Positions 14,418 to 63,824 of a stretch of DNA of 64,000 bases are shown in pieces. Made by a program: the position numbers and the translations under genes. The notes under the pieces were generated by a model. The model had not been told where the DNA came from. It saw only the letters and a list, made by a program, of their open reading frames with translations, and made no database searches. Every line of letters begins with the position of its first letter. Position 1 is the stretch's first letter. Source of the DNA: Vicinamibacterales bacterium (GTDB lineage Bacteria > Acidobacteriota > Vicinamibacteria > Vicinamibacterales > JAMQPK01); the NCBI GenBank assembly GCA_963744405.1, contig CAVUTO010000018.1, positions 881 to 64,880 of the forward strand, in the 5' to 3' direction.

Positions 14418-14895
14418 GTCGGGCCGACAGGCGGTGAAGGCAAACACCATCGGCGGCAGTCGCAACGATCAACCTGGCGTCGGCACCGACTTAGGCGTCT
14501 GTTAAGGCTCAGGCCAATGTCTCGGTGAATTCCCCATCGCTTGGCGGACTACCCCGGAGTAATCCGCCGAGAAATGTCGGAGTCACCCGCATCGCTGGAC
14601 AGAAATCGCCAACTTCAGTTGACCGCGACCCCGATGAGCGGCAACGCCGCCTCAGAGCGCACGGCGTTGTAACCCTCTAAACGTGCCGGTCCTACTGCGG
14701 CTTAGACTTCACCCAGCCGCGCTTGTCAACCAGAACGCCGCGCTTTACAAAGACGAAGTACTCGATACCGTCACCAGGATCTGCGTACTCCAGCATCACT
14801 TGTTCGCTCGCCATGTTAAGGAATTCTGCAGCGGGCGCCAACCTGGCGAAAAGCCGGGCTCGCCAGCCTTGAATTGATCCTGTGCAACGGTAGGA

Positions 14896-14971
14896 CTCTA
14901 TCGGGAGTGACCCGGCGCGCGGACGCACGCTTCGAGCCCGGATGAGGACCGCCGGGTCACTTTCGATAGAG
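14896..14971. other. Conserved end-proximal hairpin of IS copy 1
   Basis: The arms CTCTATCGGGAGTGACCCGGCG and CGCCGGGTCACTTTCGATAGAG form 22 bp with two G-T pairs. Copy 2 has the same structure with a compensated C:G to T:A change. Confidence 0.5.
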
Positions 14972-15224
14972 CCGTTTGGACCAAGCCGCTGGCGTTTGCG
15001 GCGGACGCGGGCCGGTCGGCTATGGGCGTTCGAATCGTGACGAGCCCCGAGGCGTTCGGGTGCGCGTCTTCGCGATGGAGGCCTGATCGAGGCGGTCGAG
15101 GACGTCGCCGGCATGTCGGATCGACATGACGGATGCGACACGGCGATCGCGGCTGTGGACAGACCTCCGGTGCTCGCGCGTGGGAGCGCGGCTGACGGCG
15201 GAGTGGCGAGACGCGGGCGGCGGC

Positions 15225-16419
15225 TTACGAGCTGTCATAGACGAGGTCGGCGAGGAGCGCTGCAAGAAAGAGCTGCCGCGCGGTCAGTCGTTCGACGATG
15301 CGCATAGGCGCGCCACAGCGCGGACACGGCCAGGACGCTCGTGGCGTGCGGTGACTGAGCGGCGCGGTCGGTGGCGGCGGCGCACCGCGAGCGACCTGCT
15401 CGACACGTGGGCAAGATCGGCGGGTGCGAGCAGCGAGGGGCGAGCAAGCCCGAAGTAGCGGATGCGGACGAAGCGTTTCGGGAGGACGTGCAGCAAGAAA
15501 GCGTCGGAGGAAGTCGTCGACGTCGAGCGTCAGCGTGCGCATCTGGCTCCCGTGCCGATAGTCCTTCCACCGAAACGAGACCGTGTCGTCGGTGACGGCG
15601 ACGAGTCGGTGATTCGAGATGGCGACGCGGTGGGTGTACCGCGCGAGGTAGTGCAGGACGTGGGCGGGGCTGCCAAAGGGCGGCTTCGCGTAGACCACCC
15701 ACGGTTGGTGATGGAGCGATCGGAGCCACCGCGCGAAAGGCGGACTCGGGTGCCAGCGCCTGCAAGGCCCCAGGAAACGAGAGCCGTCCCTCCCGCCACG
15801 CCTTGCGCAAGCCGGCGACGAGTTTCCCGCGAAAGACCTGCCTCAGCACCTTCACGGGCAGAAAGAAATTCGGTCGCGCGTGGATCCACCGCGCCCCATC
15901 GGGCGACAGGCCGCCAGCAGGGACCACGCAGTGGACGTGCGGGTGATGCTGCAGGCGTTGTCCCCAGGTGTGGAGGACCATCAGTCCCCCAATCGCCGCG
16001 CCCAGGCGTTTCGGATTCGCCGCGACCTGCAGCAAGGTCGCGGCGGTGGCCTGAAACAGGAGGTCGTAGACGACGCGTTTATTCGCCAGCGCGAGCCGTG
16101 CCAGCGGTTCCGGCACCGTGAAGACGACGTGGACGTAGCCCACCGGCAGGAGCTCGTGCTCCCGCGCGGCCACCCAGGCGTTACGGGCGGCTGTGAGGCA
16201 CTTCGGGCAATGCCGATCCCGACAGCTGTTGTACGAGAGCGCCGACTGCGCGCACTGGTCGCAGCGATCGCGGTGCCCGCCGAGTGCCGCGGTTCGACAC
16301 TGGGCGATGGCCCGGAGGACGCGCCGATGGTGCCCGGTCACCCAGGCGCAGTGCGTCTCCAAGAAACGATCGCCGTGTTGGCGCACGATGTCGGCCACCT
16401 CAAAGGGTGGCCGCGTCAC
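15225..16419 (-). pseudogene. IS91-family Y2 (rolling-circle, HUH) transposase, at least 3 frameshifts
   Basis: 'CDQCAQSALSYNSCRDRHCPKC' is the zinc-binding motif. 'HTWGQRLQHHPHVHCVVPAGG' is the HUH motif. 'HYLARYTHRVAISNHR' is the Y2 motif. The pieces are spread over ORFs 15235-16980, 15225-15698 and 15284-15496. The GTG start at 16419 overlaps the recombinase TGA. Confidence 0.75.
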
Positions 16420-17314
16420 CGCCGGTGCTTCAGCCGCGTCCGTCGCGCGGTGTCGGGCGCCGCGAGGGTCAGCGCGTCCAAGGGACTGGCGACGGCCTGG
16501 AGATGTTTCTGGGAGAGATGGAGATAGAGCACGGTGTGCCGGATCTCCACGTGGCCAAGGAGCAGCTGAATCGTCCGGAGGTCCGCGCCACTCTCCAGTA
16601 AGTGGGTGGCGTACGAATGGCGCACCAGGTGCGGCGAGCAGCGCTTGCGCACGCCGGCGCGCCGGGCCGCGACGACGCACGCGTCCCAGAGGACCTTGGG
16701 CGTGATGGGCTTGTCGGCGCGCCAGCCGTCGACGGTGCCCGGAAACAGCCACGTCTTCGGCCGCATCCACCGGTAGTAGGCGCGCAACGTCGTCAGGAGC
16801 GTCGGGCTGAGCGGCACATACCGATCTCGTCCGCCCTTTCCCGCGCTGGATGTGAATGAGCATCCGCCGGCTATCGATGTCCGCGACCTGCAGCTGGCGC
16901 AGCTCCGCGTTCCGCATGCCGGTCGAGTACAGGACCATCAGCATCGTGCGGTGCGACAGACTGTCGGCGGCGTCGATCAACGCGCGCCATCTCCTCGACG
17001 CTCAGGATCTTGCGGCAGCCGCCGCGGGGCTTTGGGATAGGGCGTGTCGTCGAGCAGGTACCGACGCTTCAGCGTCTTCACGAAGAAGAAGCGCAACGCC
17101 GCGACGTGGAGGCGAACCGTCAACGGTCGCATCTTCCGCTCGATGCAGCAGATACGCTTGGTAGCGATCGGAAATGCGTCTGATTCAGCCGGTCAGGCCG
17201 GCACTTGAAATGTCGGGCGAATTGCTCGACGGCGTGAAGATACGTCGAGATGGTCGTCGGCGCGTAGTTACGGCGCTGGAGCTCCTCCAGCATGATCTGG
17301 CGGCAATGGGTCAC
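16416..17314 (-). pseudogene. Tyrosine recombinase (phage-integrase family), frame-disrupted
   Basis: N-terminal SAM-like 'MTHCRQIMLEELQRRNYAPTTISTYLHAVEQFARHF' (17120-17314). Core 'ADSLSHRTMLMVLYSTGMRNAELRQLQVADID'. C-terminal 'HLVRHSYATHLLESGADLRTIQLLLGHVEIRHTVLYLH' (16416-16817). AGGAGG lies 6 nt upstream of the GTG. Confidence 0.75.
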
Positions 17315-17468
17315 AAGACACCTCCTGTGACCCCCACGCTACCCCGACGATCGAGCGAGGCTTACGCGTAGCGTCCGCCGCGCCAGCGGCTTGGTCCAAC
17401 GCCGTAGTGTAGAGATACCGATCGCTCCACACCAGGCGACCAATTGCGGGTAATCCTCTGATGGTTTA

Positions 17469-20465
17469 ATGCTGATGACGCCTGACCAATGGTTGGAGGT
17501 CCAGCGGATCTATCACGCGGCCTTGGCGCTAAGCGCCAACGACCGGGCCAGTTTTCTCGACCAGGCGTGCGCGGGCGACGACACACTACGCCGTGAAGTC
17601 GAGTCGCTGCTCGAGCATGAGCTGAGCGTGGAGGGCTTTCTGGCGACGACGCGGACCGTGGACGCCGACCCCGAGGTCAAGCCGCGTTCGCTCTCCCCTG
17701 GCACGATCTTCGGCCCCTACCGAATTCTCCATTTGCTCGGCCGCGGCGGCATGGGGATCGTGTACGAAGCAGAGGAAGTCGACAGCGCGCGTCGCGTGGC
17801 GCTGAAGGTGATCGCCACGCGCCTGCAGAACCAGGTCGAGCGTGATCGCTTTCTGCGCGAGGGCCGGCTGGCTGCCTCGATCAATCATCCAAATTGCGTT
17901 TACGTTTTCGGGGCCTGCGAGATCGATGGCCAGCCCGCGATCGCGCTGGAGCCGATGCTGGAGACTCTCGCCGATCGCCTGCACCGCGACGGCCCGTTGC
18001 CGCCAGCGGCGGCCGTTGACGCGATTCTCCAGGTTGCTCGAGGGCTCGCGGCCGCGGCAGATGGCGGCATTCTGCATCGCGATGTCAAGCCCTCGAACTG
18101 CTTCATCGGCGACCACGGCCTCGTCAAGATCGGCGATTTCGGGATTTCGCGATCGGCGCGTCCTGCCATCGACACGACGCAGCTCTCCAGGGTCGGACAT
18201 GTCGTCGGGACCCCAAGCTATGCCTCTCCGGAGCAGCTTCACGGCGCCCCGCTCGACACGCGCAGCGACATCTACGGCGTAGGCGCCACGTTGTTCGAGC
18301 TGCTCACCGGTCGCACGCCCTTTGTCGCGGCAGACCTGATGTCGATGCTGATGGCGGTGGCGAATGATCCTCCGCCCGCGCCCCACACGTTCGACCGGAC
18401 GATCCCGAAGGGTTTGAGCGCGGTCGTTGTGCGTTGTCTCGCAAAAAAACCGGAGCACCGGTTCGCAGACTACCAGCAGCTCGCCGCAGCACTCGAGCCA
18501 TATGCATCGGCGAGCCCTACCGCCGCGACCCTCGGTCGTCGATTCGTGGCCGGAACCATCGATCTCGCGATCGTGAGTGCGCCGCTCATCGCACTCGGCA
18601 TCCTGGGTACGAGTCTCGCAGAATTCGTCATCATGTTGCTCTACTTCGGCCTCTTCGAAAGCATCTGGAGCGCGACCCCCGGCAAGGCACTCTGCGGCCT
18701 TGCCGTCGTCGGCGCAAACGGTCAACGTGCCAGCCCGGCTCTCGTGATGGCTCGGGCGGCCGCTTACGCCATGGGGCTGCTTTTGATCACGTTCATTTCG
18801 ACACGGGAACCCCAGGGTCTCGAGCAGACGCTGGGCGGCCCGTTGGCATTCTTGACCGTCCAGGCGTTCGCATTGCTGCCACTCGCGATCATGTTCTCGA
18901 CCGCGCGGCGTCACAATGGCTTCGCTGGCCTGCACGATCTCGGCACCCGCACGCGCGTTGTCGAGCGCCGAGTGAGAGCCGCTCGAGCCGCGCTCACCAC
19001 ATCGGCAGGTCCGCCGCGGCATGTGATCGCCGGACGAGCGGGACCCTACGAAGTGCTGCCAGACGCCGTACGAGGCCTGGCTGACGGATGGCGATGGGGA
19101 TTCGACCCGCGCTTGCGGCGCACTGTCTGGCTCCGGTTCAGCGATCCCGGGACGCCACCCGTTGTTCCTGCACGCAGGGCGGTGGGCCGCGGCACACGGT
19201 TACGCTGGCTGGCTGGACGCCGGCTCGATAACGAGGCGTGGGACGCGTACGAGGTGGCCGAGGGTGTACCGTTGGCCGAGGCCACGCGGGACAGGCACGA
19301 GTGGACCGACGTTCGATGGTGGCTACTCGACCTCGCCAGGGAGTGCGCGGCGATGACAACTGCCGATCGGGCGCCGCGCAGTCCGCAACGCGTGTGGGCG
19401 CTCTCGTCTGGTGGCGTCAAGTGGCTCGACGATCCAGTGGCGGATGCCGTCGCTCCGGCCGACACAGTCGCCACGGATCAGGAACTCTTGATCGCCATTG
19501 CACGGACCGCGCTCGGCGGCGAGCTCGAACCGGTGACCGCGAGCTCGGTGTCTCGCCACCCGCTTCCTCTCGGGGCGTGTCGCTTCCTCGAGCGCCTCGC
19601 CGGTCCGCCGGGCCGGGACATCGGTGCGATGGTGCGAGAGCTCGAGGCACTGACCAAACAGCGCGCCGTCCTCACGCGGGCATGGCGAATGGTGCCTGTC
19701 GCGATCTGTGCGCTAGTGCCCGCGTTCGTTTTGAGTGCGGCGATGGTGTTCACGACGACCAAGGACGTCGACCGAAGCCGCGTGCCGATCGACGAGCGCG
19801 CGGCGGGAGCCTTGCTGTGGCACCTCGCGCTCGCCGACCGCGCGTGGATAGCGATTTCGATGGACGAGCGCGAATCGATCGAGCGCGCGCTGGCGACTCG
19901 ATACAGGGACGAGCTGTCCGAGGGTCGATTGTTCACCCCACGGAACATGGATTATCTCGATCTCCGACGACTATCACCAGGCGATCGCGAGCGATGTGCT
20001 GCGGCGTTATCCACAACCGCTCCCCGATCGGCAGGATCAAGTCGACACTCGAGCCGCCGCCATCATTCGACGAGCGACCCAGGACCCGGTGCGGCCGTGG
20101 TACGAGCCCATCCTTTCGGGAGCGTTCCAGATGTACTTGTCGGTCGCCGTGCTGGCACTCGTCGTGAACTTCGCCTTTCGGCGTGGCTTGATACGCATGA
20201 TGGGACTCGAGCTCGTGACGGCCGACGGGCGGCCTGCGTCACGGCTGCGTGTGCTCGCCCGTACGGCGATCACGTGGTCACCTGTGTTAATGGTTCCGTT
20301 CGTGATCCCGTTCGTCCCGGGAATCCCGCCAAGTCTCACTGGGACACCCTGGTGGATGTTGGTAATGATCGCGGGCGGCGTCTTCGTCGTCATCACGCCC
20401 GCGCGCGGCGTGCAGGATCGCATCGCTGGCACCTGGGTCGTGCCAAGATAGCGGCCGGGGGATAG
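17469..20465 (+). CDS. Ser/Thr protein kinase with RDD-family membrane domains (the last ~170 aa of this ORF are out of frame)
   Basis: 'MTPDQWLEVQRIYHAALAL...REVESLLEHE' is the N-terminal extension shared with the other kinases. 'GRGGMGIVYEA', 'HRDVKPSNCFI', 'DFGISR' and 'GTPSYASPEQ' are kinase motifs. The RDD-like stretch is 'RRFVAGTIDLAIVSAPL...WSATPGKALCGLAVV'. Confidence 0.8.
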   Translation: MLMTPDQWLEVQRIYHAALALSANDRASFLDQACAGDDTLRREVESLLEHELSVEGFLATTRTVDADPEVKPRSLSPGTIFGPYRILHLLGRGGMGIVYEAEEVDSARRVALKVIATRLQNQVERDRFLREGRLAASINHPNCVYVFGACEIDGQPAIALEPMLETLADRLHRDGPLPPAAAVDAILQVARGLAAAADGGILHRDVKPSNCFIGDHGLVKIGDFGISRSARPAIDTTQLSRVGHVVGTPSYASPEQLHGAPLDTRSDIYGVGATLFELLTGRTPFVAADLMSMLMAVANDPPPAPHTFDRTIPKGLSAVVVRCLAKKPEHRFADYQQLAAALEPYASASPTAATLGRRFVAGTIDLAIVSAPLIALGILGTSLAEFVIMLLYFGLFESIWSATPGKALCGLAVVGANGQRASPALVMARAAAYAMGLLLITFISTREPQGLEQTLGGPLAFLTVQAFALLPLAIMFSTARRHNGFAGLHDLGTRTRVVERRVRAARAALTTSAGPPRHVIAGRAGPYEVLPDAVRGLADGWRWGFDPRLRRTVWLRFSDPGTPPVVPARRAVGRGTRLRWLAGRRLDNEAWDAYEVAEGVPLAEATRDRHEWTDVRWWLLDLARECAAMTTADRAPRSPQRVWALSSGGVKWLDDPVADAVAPADTVATDQELLIAIARTALGGELEPVTASSVSRHPLPLGACRFLERLAGPPGRDIGAMVRELEALTKQRAVLTRAWRMVPVAICALVPAFVLSAAMVFTTTKDVDRSRVPIDERAAGALLWHLALADRAWIAISMDERESIERALATRYRDELSEGRLFTPRNMDYLDLRRLSPGDRERCAAALSTTAPRSAGSSRHSSRRHHSTSDPGPGAAVVRAHPFGSVPDVLVGRRAGTRRELRLSAWLDTHDGTRARDGRRAACVTAACARPYGDHVVTCVNGSVRDPVRPGNPAKSHWDTLVDVGNDRGRRLRRHHARARRAGSHRWHLGRAKIAAGG
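19996..20451 (+). CDS. True C-terminal part of the 17469 kinase (second RDD-like membrane domain); frameshift near 19950-19990
   Basis: 'YLSVAVLALVVNFAFRRGLIRMMGLELVTADGRPASRLRVLARTAITW...ARGVQDRIAGTWVVPR' has the RDD-family ending. The frame is open upstream as 'DYHQAIASDVLRRYPQ'. Confidence 0.55.
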   Translation: MLRRYPQPLPDRQDQVDTRAAAIIRRATQDPVRPWYEPILSGAFQMYLSVAVLALVVNFAFRRGLIRMMGLELVTADGRPASRLRVLARTAITWSPVLMVPFVIPFVPGIPPSLTGTPWWMLVMIAGGVFVVITPARGVQDRIAGTWVVPR

Positions 20466-23804: not shown

Positions 23805-23948
23805 CGGCGGGTGGCGCCGATTTTTCTTTGTCCGCCGCGCCCCTCGACACCGCTCGGGGCGCCCTGAGCCTCGTCGAAGGGCGCAGGGCCGTCTCACGTA
23901 CACGCGCTTGTCGGCCCGAGGACGGGCAAAGGAAAATCGGCGACAGGG
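23805..23948 (+). repeat. Structured intergenic repeat, copy A (long inverted-repeat form with a 44-nt insertion in the loop)
   Basis: Arm GGCGCCGATTTTTCTTTGTCCG pairs with CGGGCAAAGGAAAATCGGCG (20 bp, 2 G-U). The core GGCCCGAGGACGGGCAAAGGAAAATCGGCGACAGG is shared with 26022, 46144, 54410 and 63643. Confidence 0.6.
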
Positions 23949-26021: not shown

Positions 26022-26062
26022 TTGTCGGCCCGAGGACGGGCAAAGGGAAATCGGCGACAGGA
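26022..26062 (+). repeat. Structured repeat, core-only copy D
   Basis: TTGTCGGCCCGAGGACGGGCAAAGGGAAATCGGCGACAGGA has an outer TGTCG/CGACA stem and an inner GCCCG-agga-CGGGC stem. Confidence 0.55.
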
Positions 26063-46143: not shown

Positions 46144-46182
46144 AGGCCCGAGGACGGGCAAAGGAAAATCGGTGACAGGACC
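46144..46182 (+). repeat. Structured repeat, core-only copy E
   Basis: AGGCCCGAGGACGGGCAAAGGAAAATCGGTGACAGGACC lies 12 nt after the methyltransferase stop. Confidence 0.5.
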
Positions 46183-46198
46183 TGCGCGACGCGATGCG

Positions 46199-54409: not shown

Positions 54410-54561
54410 GCCGGCCGGCTTGCACTCGTCCCACAGTGACGCGTTTCGCAGCCCTCATGGCGGGTGGCGCCGATTTTTCTTTGTCCGCCCCGCAGGGCCG
54501 TCTCTCGTGGCACGTGCTTGTCGGCCCGAGGACGGGCAAAGGAAAATCGGCGACAGGACCC
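54410..54561 (+). repeat. Structured intergenic repeat, copy B (long form)
   Basis: It aligns over ~150 nt with 63643-63791 with few mismatches. It has the same 20-bp arm pairing and core as copy A. Confidence 0.6.
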
Positions 54562-54607
54562 GCGCACCGGCTGCGAGAGACTGAGGGGTTAGCTCAGCTA
54601 AAGCTGA
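54561..54607 (+). repeat. Second repeat module (CGCGCACCGGCTGCGA ... TTAGCTCAGCTAAAGCTGA), here 3' of the core
   Basis: The same blocks occur at 25950-25993, where they lie 5' of the core. Confidence 0.4.
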
Positions 54608-61072: not shown

Positions 61073-61139
61073 GCGATCTTCGTGGATTATACGGGTCGAC
61101 GCGACCACGCGGACGGTATTACTCCCGATCACGGTAGGA

Positions 61140-61214
61140 CTCTATCGGGAGTGACTCGGCGCGCGACGCACGCTTCAAGCCCGCACCTCGATCGCCGAGT
61201 CACTTTCGATAGAG
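61140..61214. other. Conserved end-proximal hairpin of IS copy 2
   Basis: Arms CTCTATCGGGAGTGACTCGGCG and CGCCGAGTCACTTTCGATAGAG. Relative to copy 1 the paired positions changed together (C:G to T:A), while the loop sequence diverged. Confidence 0.5.
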
Positions 61215-61449
61215 CCGTTTGGACCAAGCCGCTGGCGTCTGCGGCGGACGCGGCCCCTCAGCTATGTGCGTTCAATCGTGGGAGCCCCGGACGTAGGGAC
61301 TTCCATCTACCCAATGGAGATCGCGAAATCCACATGCGCAGGAGTCATCGCACGCCGGGTGCGGGTCGTCAATCGTGGCGATTTGCCACACCTCCGGCGC
61401 ACGCGCGTCCGAGCGCGACGGCGAGCGGGTGGCGGGACATGGACGCGGC

Positions 61450-62632
61450 TTACGAGGTGTCATAAAAGACGTCTGCCAGGAGCGCTTCAACGAAGAGCTG
61501 TCGCGCGGTTTGGCGTTACGATGCGAGTAGGCGCCCCGCAACGAGGGCACGGCCACGACGCTCGTGGCCGCGCGGTGATGAGCGGTTCGGCCGGTGGTGT
61601 TGGGGCGCCCGCGAGCGCCTGACGACAGTGGGCCAGCCCGCGGGTACGAGCGCGTGAGGCGAGGAAGCCAAAGTAGCGGATGCGGACGAAGCGCTTCGGC
61701 AGCACATGGAGGAGAAAGCGTCGGAGAAACTCGTCGGCGTCGAGCGTGAGGGTGCGGATCTGACTCCCATGCCGGTAGTCCTTCCATCGAAACGAGACGG
61801 TGTCGTCAGTCACGATGACGAGCCGGTGGTTGGAAATGGCGACGCGGTGGGTGTAGCGCGCGAGGTAGTGCAGCACGTAGGCAGGACTGCTAAAGGGCGG
61901 CTTGGCATAGATCACCCACGACTGGCGATAGAGCGATCGGAGAAACGCGCGGAAGGCGGACTCGGCGGCCAACGACTGTAAGGTGCCAGGAAACGAGAGC
62001 CGCCCTTGGTGAAATGCTGCGCGCAAGCCGGCGACGAGTTTCCCGCGAAAGACCTGGCGCAGCACCTTCACGGGCAGAAAGAAAGTCGGTCGCGCGTGGA
62101 TCCACGCGCGCCATGGGCGACAAGCCGCCAGCAGGTACCACGCAGTGGACGTGGGGGTGATGCTGGAGGCGCTGGCCCCAGGTGTGGAGGACCATCAGTC
62201 CGCCAATCGCGGCGCCCAGGCGTTTCGGATTCGCCGCGACCTGGAGCAAGGTCGCGGCGGTGGCGTGAAACAGCAGGTGGTAGACGACGCGTTTATTGGG
62301 CAGCGCAAGCCGTGCGAGCGGTTCCGGCACCGTGAAGACGACGTGGACGTAGCCGACGGGCAGGAGCTCGTGCTCCCGCGCGGTCACCCAGGCGTTGCGG
62401 GCGGCTGTGAGGCACTTCGGGCAATGCCGATCGCGACAGCTGTTGTACGAGAGCGCCGACTGCGCGCACTGCTCGCAGCGATCGCGATGCCCGCCGAGTG
62501 CCGCGGTGCGACACTGGGCGATGGCCCGAAGGACGGCCGATGGTGCCCGGTCACCCAGGTGCAGTGCGTCTCCAAGAAACGATCGCCGTGTTGGCGCACG
62601 ATGTCGGCCACCTCGAAGGGTGGCCGGGTCAT
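61450..62632 (-). pseudogene. IS91-family Y2 transposase, frame-disrupted
   Basis: 'MTRPPFEVADIVRQHGDRFLETHC', 'CEQCAQSALSYNSCRDRHCPKC', 'HPHVHCVVPAGG' and 'HYLARYTHRVAISNHR'. There is a 2-nt deletion near 62100 and a shift near 61500. Confidence 0.7.
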
Positions 62633-63521
62633 CGCTGGTGCTTGAGCCGCGTGCGTCGCGCGGTGTCGGGCGCCGAGAGGTTGAGCGCGTCCAAGGGACT
62701 CGCGACGGCTTGGAGATGTTTTTGGGAGAGATGGAGATAGAGCACGGTATGCCGGATCTCCACGTGGCCGAGGAGGAGCTGAATCGTCCGGAGGTCCGCA
62801 CCACTTTCAAGTAGGTGCGTGGCGAAGGAATGGCGCAACAGGTGAGGTGAGCAGGGCTTGCGCAAGCCGGCGCGCCGGGCCGCGACGACGCACGCGTCCC
62901 AGAGGACCTTGGGTGTGATGGGCTTGTCGGCGCGCCAGCCGTCGACGGTCCCCGGAAACAGCCACGTCTTCGGCCGCATCCACCGGTAGTAGGCGCGCAG
63001 CGTGGTGAGGAGCGTCGGACTGAGCGGCACATACCGATCGCGTCCCCCTTTACCCCGTTGGATGTGGATGAGCATGCGCCGGCTGTCGATGTCGGCGACC
63101 TGCAGCTGACGCAGCTCCGCGTTGCGCATGCCGGTCGAGGTACAGAACCATCAGCATCGTGCGGTGCGACAGACTGTCGGCGGCGTCGATCAAGCGCGCG
63201 ACCTCCTCGACGCTCAGGATCTGCGGCAACCGACGCGGGGCTTTGGGATAGGGCGTGTCGTCGAGCAGGTACCGACGCTTCAGCGTCTTCACGAAGAAGA
63301 AGCGCAACGCCGCAACGTGGAGGCGAACCGTCAGCGGTTGCATCTTCCGCTGGCGCAGCAGATACGCTTGGTAGGACCGGAAATGCGTCTGATTCAGCCG
63401 GTCAGGTCGGCACTTGAAATGTCGGGCGAATTGCTCGACGGCGTGAAGATAGGACGAGATGGTCGTGGGGGCGAGTTCGGCGCTGGAGCTCCTCCAACAT
63501 GATGTGGCGGCAATGGGTCAC
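62629..63521 (-). pseudogene. Tyrosine recombinase, frame-disrupted
   Basis: The C-terminal half is intact in ORF 62629-63129 ('GKGGRDRYVPLSP...HLLRHSFATHLLESGADLRTIQLLLGHVEIRHTVLYLH'). The N-terminal part is broken near 63120 and 63470. The ATGA overlap links it to the transposase start. Confidence 0.7.
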
Positions 63522-63642
63522 AAGACACCTCCTGTGACCCCCACGCTACCCGGTCGGTCGAGCGAGGCTTACGCGTAGCGTCCGCCGCGCCAGCGGCTTG
63601 GTCCTAACGCCGTAGGGTAGACCGATCCTGCGGTCCTGTTGA

Positions 63643-63791
63643 GCGGCCGGCTAGCACTCGTCCGACAGTGACGCGTTTCGCAGCCCTGATGGCGGGTGGC
63701 GCCGATTTTTCTTTGTCCGCCGCGCAGGGCCGTCTCACGTACACGCGTTTGTCGGCCCGAGGACGGGCAAAGGAAAATCGGCGACAGGACC
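63643..63791 (+). repeat. Structured intergenic repeat, copy C (long form)
   Basis: See 54410-54561. It lies 16 nt after the IS right end and 33 nt before the ATG at 63825. Confidence 0.6.
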
Positions 63792-63824
63792 CGTGCTATT
63801 GGTTAAGTCAGGTCGGAGTGAACC

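Follow-up and report, generated by a model that had tools for sequence, protein, structure and literature searches.

IS91-family and ISCR elements mobilise resistance and virulence genes, and the reading of their ends is poorly defined; transposition has been shown for only four members of the IS91 family (PMC13181058). The oriIS ends described for IS91, IS801 and IS1294 carry subterminal palindromes, the oriIS of IS91 lies downstream of tnpA, and of the IS91 intermediates only the bottom-strand single-stranded circle is inserted (PMC13181058). The bottom strand of IS91 presumably corresponds to the strand antisense to tnpA. An IS91 copy retrieved for comparison supports this identification: its flank is CAAG on the tnpA strand, so that the opposite strand has 5'-CTTG, as reported. 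Among the IS91 members in ISfinder are some with an integrase ORF. The presence of tyrosine recombinases in IS91 elements has also been noted (10.1101/542381). In the literature searched, no description of the ends of this integrase-carrying subgroup was found. Related behaviour is known from the IS200/IS605 family (e.g. IS608), where an HUH transposase acts on one strand, recognises subterminal imperfect palindromes, cleaves a few nucleotides from the hairpin foot and generates no target duplication.

The stretch of 64,000 nucleotides analysed here, referred to as the window, contains two copies of an approximately 2.5-kb element, which were aligned by blastn as a single block of 2535 columns with 88.2% identity (Table 1). 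The gene order on the minus strand is a tyrosine recombinase gene (int) followed by tnpA of the IS91-family HUH/Y2 type. The transposase scored 428.6 bits with the NCBIfam IS91 model NF033538 (cutoff 125) and matched the Pfam domains Y2_Tnp (PF04986, E = 5.9e-66) and Zn_Tnp_IS91 (PF14319, E = 4.4e-28); the HPHVH and YLARY motifs are visible in the tnpA translations of both copies. The combination of an HUH/Y2 transposase and an N-terminal zinc-binding domain, by which the IS91 family is recognised, is present here. The recombinase contains Phage_integrase and N-terminal SAM-like domains and stayed below the cutoffs of the Xer and integron-integrase models in the profile search, with 182 bits in two stretches for TIGR02249 (cutoff 265) and 133 bits for NF011946 (cutoff 435). 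Judged from the domains and the gene order, the element is a member of the IS91 family, in the subgroup in which tnpA is immediately preceded by a tyrosine recombinase gene.

Frameshifts interrupt int as well as tnpA in copy 1 and copy 2 alike and may reflect real decay or assembly errors. As both copies are pseudogenised, the ori signal in the window is regarded as a relic. In two relatives, L007 and L053, the int and tnpA genes are intact and their stop and start codons overlap as ATGA. The same arrangement is found in IS91, with the difference that the upstream ORF is orf121 there and a tyrosine recombinase in this clade.

Table 1. Coordinates of the two element copies and of their parts in the window.
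Feature	Position	Strand	Basis or remark
IS copy 1	14887..17413	- (genes on minus strand)	ori end 14887, ter end 17413; blastn homology limits
IS copy 2	61131..63621	-	blastn homology limits
tnpA, copy 1 (IS91-family HUH/Y2 transposase, frameshifted)	15225..16419	-	ORF fragments, Pfam and NCBIfam matches
Tyrosine recombinase gene, copy 1 (frameshifted)	16416..17314	-	ORFs, domain matches; stop overlaps tnpA start
tnpA, copy 2 (frameshifted)	61487..62632	-	ORF fragments
Tyrosine recombinase gene, copy 2 (frameshifted)	62629..63521	-	ORF fragments
P0 5' strand ACGG, terminal element nucleotides	14887..14890	+	sharp homology end; pairs with 14972-14975
Bulge TAGGA, 5 nt, conserved	14891..14895	+	complement of TCCTA (tnpA-sense); TAG nearly invariant in 60 distinct ends
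P1 5' arm, copy 1	14896..14917	+	sequence, covariation
P1 loop, copy 1, 32 nt	14918..14949	+	sequence and length variable across the family
P1 3' arm, copy 1	14950..14971	+	sequence
P0 3' strand CCGT	14972..14975	+	RNAalifold prediction, covariation
IR ori-side arm, copy 1	14973..15008	.	holds GCCGC-N8-GCGGC at 14985-15002
IR ter-side arm, copy 1	17371..17401	.	holds GCCGC-N4-GCGGC at 17377-17390
ter terminus, copy 1	17402..17413	-	poorly conserved in relatives
ori structure, copy 2	61131..61218	+	P0 61131-61134/61215-61218; bulge 61135-61139; P1 arms 61140-61161/61193-61214
IR ori-side arm, copy 2	61216..61251	.	blastn, sequence
IR ter-side arm, copy 2	63578..63609	.	blastn

An earlier sequence-only reading of the window had described a 22-bp stem in both copies, and this stem (P1) was recovered in each of them. 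In copy 1 the arms of 22 nt form 20 Watson-Crick pairs and two adjacent G.T pairs (14904.14963 and 14905.14962). The copies differ at a single pair of the stem, on both arms, with C:G at 14912:14955 versus T:A at 61156:61198, and the compensatory change proposed earlier was thereby confirmed. The hairpin is separated by 254 nt from the tnpA stop, on its downstream side, and lies 9 nt inside the end of the inter-copy homology. It had been placed outside the left inverted repeat (IR), which is correct with respect to the repeat; however, it lies inside the element, the homology of which begins 9 nt before the stem (14887/61131). The loop had been described as freely diverged. This applies to the wider family, where it is free in sequence and 28-45 nt long, but not to the two copies, since the first ~28 nt of their loops are alike except for one substitution and one indel, and the divergence is confined to the last ~9 nt.

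Relatives were collected by scanning one genome per species with the reconstructed transposase, which resulted in at least 357 matches, and 80 loci (L001-L080) were retained. These originate mostly from Acidobacteriota MAGs, and their TnpA are 55-86% identical. Using a profile of the window's end, 76 of the 80 loci were found to have a homologous end, at a distance of 290-400 nt downstream of tnpA, all 76 with the hairpin, which travels with the element into unrelated flanks. The stem sequence differs between the subfamilies; examples from the tnpA-sense strand are CTCTATCGAAAGTGACCCGGCG...CGCCGGGTCACTCCCGATAGAG, the type of the window, CCCTATCGAAACTGCCCCG...CGGGGCAGTCCCGATAGGG, GCTGTATCTGAAGCGCCCC...GGCGCTTCAGATACAGC and TTGTATCCGAAGTGCC...GGCACTTCGGATACAA. 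The same architecture with integrase and tnpA was found in cultured bacteria, on plasmids of Legionella, Bradyrhizobium, Rhizobium johnstonii 3841 and Dinoroseobacter shibae, and the transposase clade is represented in 409 plasmid records at E <= 1e-40. All the inspected relatives with a TnpA identity of at least 43% carry the recombinase.

To follow the pairing through the family, 60 distinct ends were aligned without gaps by anchoring on the invariant TATC/GATA box, with no structure fitting and with the loop trimmed to 8 nt. The paired cells amounted to 95.2%, 15 of the 19 pairs had changed on both sides, and the observed values were reached by 0 of 500 shuffles. When the partner was shifted by 1-3 columns in the same alignment, the pairing fell to 34-45%. 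With an independent MAFFT alignment of 39 real ends including their loops, RNAalifold predicted both P1 and a short terminal helix, P0, with compensatory changes in 16 of 21 pairs; 97.3% of the cells were paired and the observed value was equalled in 0 of 500 shuffles. The covariation analysis of further copies suggested in the sequence-only reading was clearly positive, and the structure lies far outside chance expectation. The comparison supports the interpretation that the hairpin is a conserved single-strand origin signal which is kept by compensating mutations.

The two G.T pairs of the stem had been taken as a sign of strand-specificity. The stem changes were counted on the window + strand by parsimony on a neighbour-joining tree of tnpA DNA, resulting in 30 double changes from one Watson-Crick pair to another, 26 changes to G.T, 2 to A.C and 13 reversions of G.T to Watson-Crick. 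For the 26:2 split between G.T and A.C, the binomial p is 3e-6. The tnpA coding region served as the control for mutation bias; the same classes were counted there as 1517:2114, in the opposite direction, and against this expectation the p value of the stem bias was 2e-8. Mutation bias by single-strand deamination therefore does not account for the G.T excess. When the two strands were folded with DNA energy parameters, the + (bottom) strand was the more stable one in 61 of 69 distinct ends, with a mean difference of 2.1 kcal/mol. The G.T excess, the opposite bias of the coding region and the higher stability of the + strand together indicate that the fold is selected on the strand antisense to tnpA, and that the asymmetry noticed in two base pairs holds family-wide. 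The folded molecule is presumably DNA rather than RNA, between which G.T and G.U pairs do not discriminate. The comparison provides strong evidence of a strand-specific fold of DNA.

On the + strand, the end is arranged as flank, ACGG, TAGGA, P1 5' arm, loop, P1 3' arm, CCGT and IR. P0 covaries between ACG:CGT, AGTC:GACT and GAC:GTC: one main subfamily combines ACG(G) with (C)CGT, the other AAGTC with GACTT, and a single locus GAC with GTC. Across the family, P0 is separated from P1 by a bulge of 5-6 nt. P1 consists of ~21 bp with the invariant TATC/GATA box, a spot immediately above it where wobble pairs persist, and a loop free in sequence and length, and the sequence of its distal part varies freely while the pairing is kept. 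The ori boundary is sharp, and copies in the same genome diverge right after CGT. In the IS91 family, functionally distinct ends are expected, with a palindrome-bearing oriIS downstream of tnpA and a conserved terminus; such an oriIS was found here, with the hairpin 9 nt from the end.

The terminal motif of the clade, GTCCTA(N)CGT (CCTAnnCGT) at the very end of the element, matches TTCCTATACGT of IS1294-like, TTCCTATCGAT of IS91 and TTCCTATGCAT of IS801-like copies. The ori termini of these recombinase-less members are ...AAATTCCTATCGAT before the flank CAAG (IS91), ...CCTATGCAT before CAAG (IS801-like) and ...TTTCCTATACGT before GGAC (IS1294-like), and the window element terminates with ...GAGTCCTACCGT. 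The CCTA of the IS91/IS1294 ori termini has its counterpart in the TAGGA bulge, and the IS801-like terminus is the 3' arm of a 9-bp palindrome. The structure is assigned to the transposase and not to the recombinase mainly because of this homology with recombinase-less members. By distribution, the two enzymes are inseparable as readers, since every examined hairpin-bearing relative carries the recombinase.

The imperfect IRs described in the sequence-only reading were borne out in both copies, with the extent 14973-15008 versus 17371-17401 in copy 1. The arms of copy 1 are identical at 31 of 36 positions, with a 4-nt indel and a single-base gap, and the same pattern was seen in copy 2. Subterminal IRs of 31-37 bp are present at both ends in every subfamily and share the core TTG(A/G)AC.AAGCC and a small GC palindrome. 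They are atypical for IS91, as had been remarked. The family is characterised by the absence of terminal inverted repeats; the present ones are internal to the termini and depart from the classical description without excluding membership. The small palindrome covaries in relatives (GCCGC..GCGGC versus GCCGT..ACGGC; also GCCGT-GGT-ACGGC and GCC-TTAC-GGC) and is probably the counterpart of the subterminal palindrome known from the terIS of IS91. The IR arms keep fixed transversions, e.g. GAAC(T/G)AAG at ter versus GAAGGAAG at ori, and are therefore read as putative protein-binding sites rather than pairing partners. The transition differences between the arms lean to bottom-strand G.T (10 versus 3 position/type combinations, p = 0.09, not significant), which is a weak hint of an IR panhandle in a single-stranded intermediate; the conserved transversions speak against it.

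The ter boundary is ragged, and the 8-14 nt preceding the ter-side IR vary between copies. Some copy pairs have common extra upstream DNA at ter, such as L012/L013, which share more than 40 nt. In L005/L008, located in the same genome, at least 600 nt beyond the ori end are in common and the ter flanks are different. In L021, a spacer of 24 nt separates the ori end of one subfamily from the ter end of another, and this spacer is also present in front of ter in L072. These cases may be traces of one-ended transposition or of insertion beside resident copies.

No target-site duplication was detected, as direct repeats at 58 insertion sites were no commoner than in permuted flank pairs. A GATCGG repeat flanking copy 2 was considered as a target duplication and was within the chance distribution. 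On the ori side, a degenerate target preference of ~13 bp was observed at a fixed distance from the CTA bulge (14860-14886 and 61105-61130 in the window, and the flanks of L001-L080). In the tnpA sense, the consensus of the CGT-ending subfamily (n = 33) is T(T/A)nTC(A/G)GGAC(T/C)(A/T)ATC, with A at +8 in 26 of 33 loci, and that of the GACTT-ending subfamily (n = 35) is CTCGGTACTAATC. The ~13-bp target resembles an inverted copy of the hairpin foot (GATAGAGTCCT). In the flank consensus, no GTTC/CTTG-like tetranucleotide abuts the ori end, and in this respect the clade deviates from the IS91-family target. The sharp ori, the ragged ter and the lack of target duplication fit rolling-circle initiation at the hairpin end.

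Three further explanations of the flanks were considered, and the last two of them were rejected. Formation of a hairpin by the pre-insertion target, with the left flank pairing with the right, was not supported, the mean longest stem being 4.53 compared to 4.44 +/- 0.12 in permuted flank pairs. Target choice by pairing with the P1 arm, similar to the guide of IS608, disagrees with the near-identical target consensus of the two main subfamilies despite their differing arms, TATCGGGAGTGAC and TATCTGAAGCGCC. The flanks are not part of a larger element either, as the 600 nt downstream are unrelated between loci, save one duplicated pair and one 47-nt match. As an observation on copy 2, its flank at 61121-61129 (ACTCCCGAT) is perfectly reverse-complementary to ATCGGGAGT, which is part of the P1 5' arm (61144-61152); this alternative hairpin would put the putative nick site in a loop, and no general rule emerged across loci.

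Compared to the oriIS of IS91, IS801, IS1294 and IS1294b, the clade has in common a transposase of the HUH/Y2 type whose N-terminus binds zinc, the position of this end downstream of tnpA and the subterminal palindrome (PMC13181058). It also shares with them the terminal CCTA..CGT/GAT, the lack of target duplication, possibly an imprecise ter, and presumably the strand antisense to tnpA as the active or selected one. In contrast, the stem of the clade has ~21 bp and a loop of 28-45 nt, whereas the palindromes of these elements have roughly 9 bp; CCTA is located in a bulge between two helices and not inside the stem as in IS91/IS801; and the target is a degenerate ~13-bp motif instead of the GTTC/CTTG tetranucleotide of classical IS91 members. 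The 31-37-bp IRs beside both ends and the tyrosine recombinase in place of Orf121 as the upstream ORF are further differences. IS200/IS605 elements such as IS608 would resemble the clade in the action of an HUH enzyme on one strand only and in cleavage a few nucleotides from the hairpin foot; hairpins near the ends and the absence of target duplication are common to both. However, these are Y1 enzymes with another fold context, and their sites are read by guide base pairing beside the hairpin, whereas pairing of target and arm was not found in the clade. In Helitrons, the 3' hairpin is likewise a subterminal end signal of a rolling-circle HUH transposon (PMC4778049); it marks the termination end, while the hairpin of the clade would mark the initiation (ori) end, and the host domain of life and the enzyme family differ. 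On these comparisons, the kind of signal is already known, and the clade differs in the stem size, the architecture of two helices and a bulge, the IRs, the companion recombinase and the non-GTTC/CTTG target.

The most probable reading, to which we assign a probability of about 0.8, is that the hairpin is the central part of oriIS in a rolling-circle IS of the IS91 family and its recombinase-carrying subgroup, and that the HUH/Y2 transposase reads the bottom-strand fold. The bottom strand, antisense to tnpA, would fold into a P0 of 4-5 bp starting from the first nucleotides, the TAGGA bulge and the P1 of ~21 bp. The fold would be recognised on single-stranded DNA by TnpA and not by the recombinase, the cut would be made at the foot of P0, between 14886 and 14887, and TnpA would become linked to the 5' end. 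The same fold would mark the bottom-strand intermediate for insertion. The ori/ter-type single-strand signal of an HUH transposon, as postulated in the sequence-only reading, is supported by the assignment to the IS91 family, the position of the hairpin at the oriIS end, the covariation and the strand asymmetry. The strand-specific selection on the fold also gives indirect support for a putative route through a single-stranded circular intermediate and rolling-circle transposition.

The element's own tyrosine recombinase could instead use the hairpin, or a duplex of the IR arms, as a folded single-strand site in the manner of integron attC, which we consider unlikely. The integrase IntI acts on bottom-strand hairpins. 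Like attC, the hairpin of the clade lies on the bottom strand, has conserved boxes close to its foot and varies in the distal part and the loop. The recombinases of IS91 elements fall in the integron-like subgroup of tyrosine recombinases but have no IntI-specific insertion (10.1101/542381), and the present one scored below the integron-integrase models and was matched in two stretches only. Recombinase presence in all examined hairpin-bearing relatives, the conserved boxes and persistent non-Watson-Crick spot of the stem, and a target preference spanning ~13 bp, unlike that of TnpA-only IS91, would suit such a site. The boxes, however, are TATC/GATA, and no R/L-box consensus (GTTRRRY/RYYYAAC; R''/L''-L'/R' boxes) was seen by eye in the stem. 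The lean of the IR-arm transitions to bottom-strand G.T (p = 0.09) is opposed by the conserved transversions between the arms (positions -2/-1), which disfavour arm-to-arm pairing. Unlike in conservative site-specific recombination, the two junctions have no shared core or duplication; the hairpin abuts an HUH-type terminus, and the terminal motif is homologous to that of IS91/IS1294, which lack the recombinase. A relay of both enzymes, in which the bottom strand is displaced from the hairpin by the HUH transposase and the integron-like recombinase inserts the folded strand into the ~13-bp target, with the hairpin or an IR panhandle being attC-like, is considered quite improbable. If true, it would explain the constant recombinase of the clade, the IRs and a target longer than a tetranucleotide.

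The remaining explanations do not involve the recombinase. The hairpin might act as RNA in a + strand transcript that enters from outside, antisense to the tnpA 3' end, e.g. as a read-through barrier or antisense regulator. The wobble bias would suit G.U as well as G.T, and the RNA fold z-scores of the + strand were -3.4 to -3.9. This is nevertheless very unlikely, as no promoter-like or terminator-like site was found in 14600-17700 and no T run behind the stem, and no Rfam family matched 14600-17700 at E <= 1 or the whole window at gathering thresholds; moreover, P0 uses the first nucleotides of the element, so that each insertion would require a transcript start in the unrelated DNA of its flank. 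Both strands fold well according to the DNA minimum free energies (-36.1/-33.9 and -37.7/-39.3 kcal/mol), as would be expected of a symmetric duplex-DNA binding site or a cruciform with both strands read equally. Such a site is just as improbable as the RNA in view of the 26:2 asymmetry of intermediates with no matching mutation bias, the more stable bottom strand in 61/69 ends, and the distal stem, where the free sequence with kept pairing is unexpected for a duplex read by its sequence. As for a chance palindrome or a REP-like host repeat hit by the IS, nothing more than the position at the element edge speaks for it; this explanation is refuted by the movement of the hairpin with the element into unrelated flanks at 76 loci, and no solo or miniature copies are present in the window.

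Several other repeats of the window were recorded. An invariant ~35-nt motif, GGCCCGAGGACGGGCAAAGGAAAATCGGCGACAGG, occurs five times on the + strand (about 23908-23947, 26022-26062, 46145-46187, 54518-54562 and 63749-63793); it opens with a small hairpin, GCCCG-AGGA-CGGGC, and has no Rfam match. Three of the occurrences are within a longer ~150-nt repeat, and one such repeat starts 23 bp from the ter end of copy 2. The paralogous repeats 22501-23402/23988-24889 and 56528-57316/60225-61022 are 72-83% identical and appear, by ORF translation and inspection of the N-terminal motif, to encode Ser/Thr protein kinases; each of the two IS copies has one of these apparent kinase genes closely downstream. 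A 435-bp repeat, 35620-36054/41211-41645, has 98% identity.

The clade is abundant, with at least 357 matches in one genome per species and 409 plasmid records, and natural variation suffices to define the ori structure by comparison, namely a helix at the putative nick site, a bulge that is conserved and a long stem containing the invariant TATC/GATA box. The comparison also gives an independent sign of selection on the strand antisense to tnpA. The result supplies substrates for biochemistry and a model for the annotation of ori ends.
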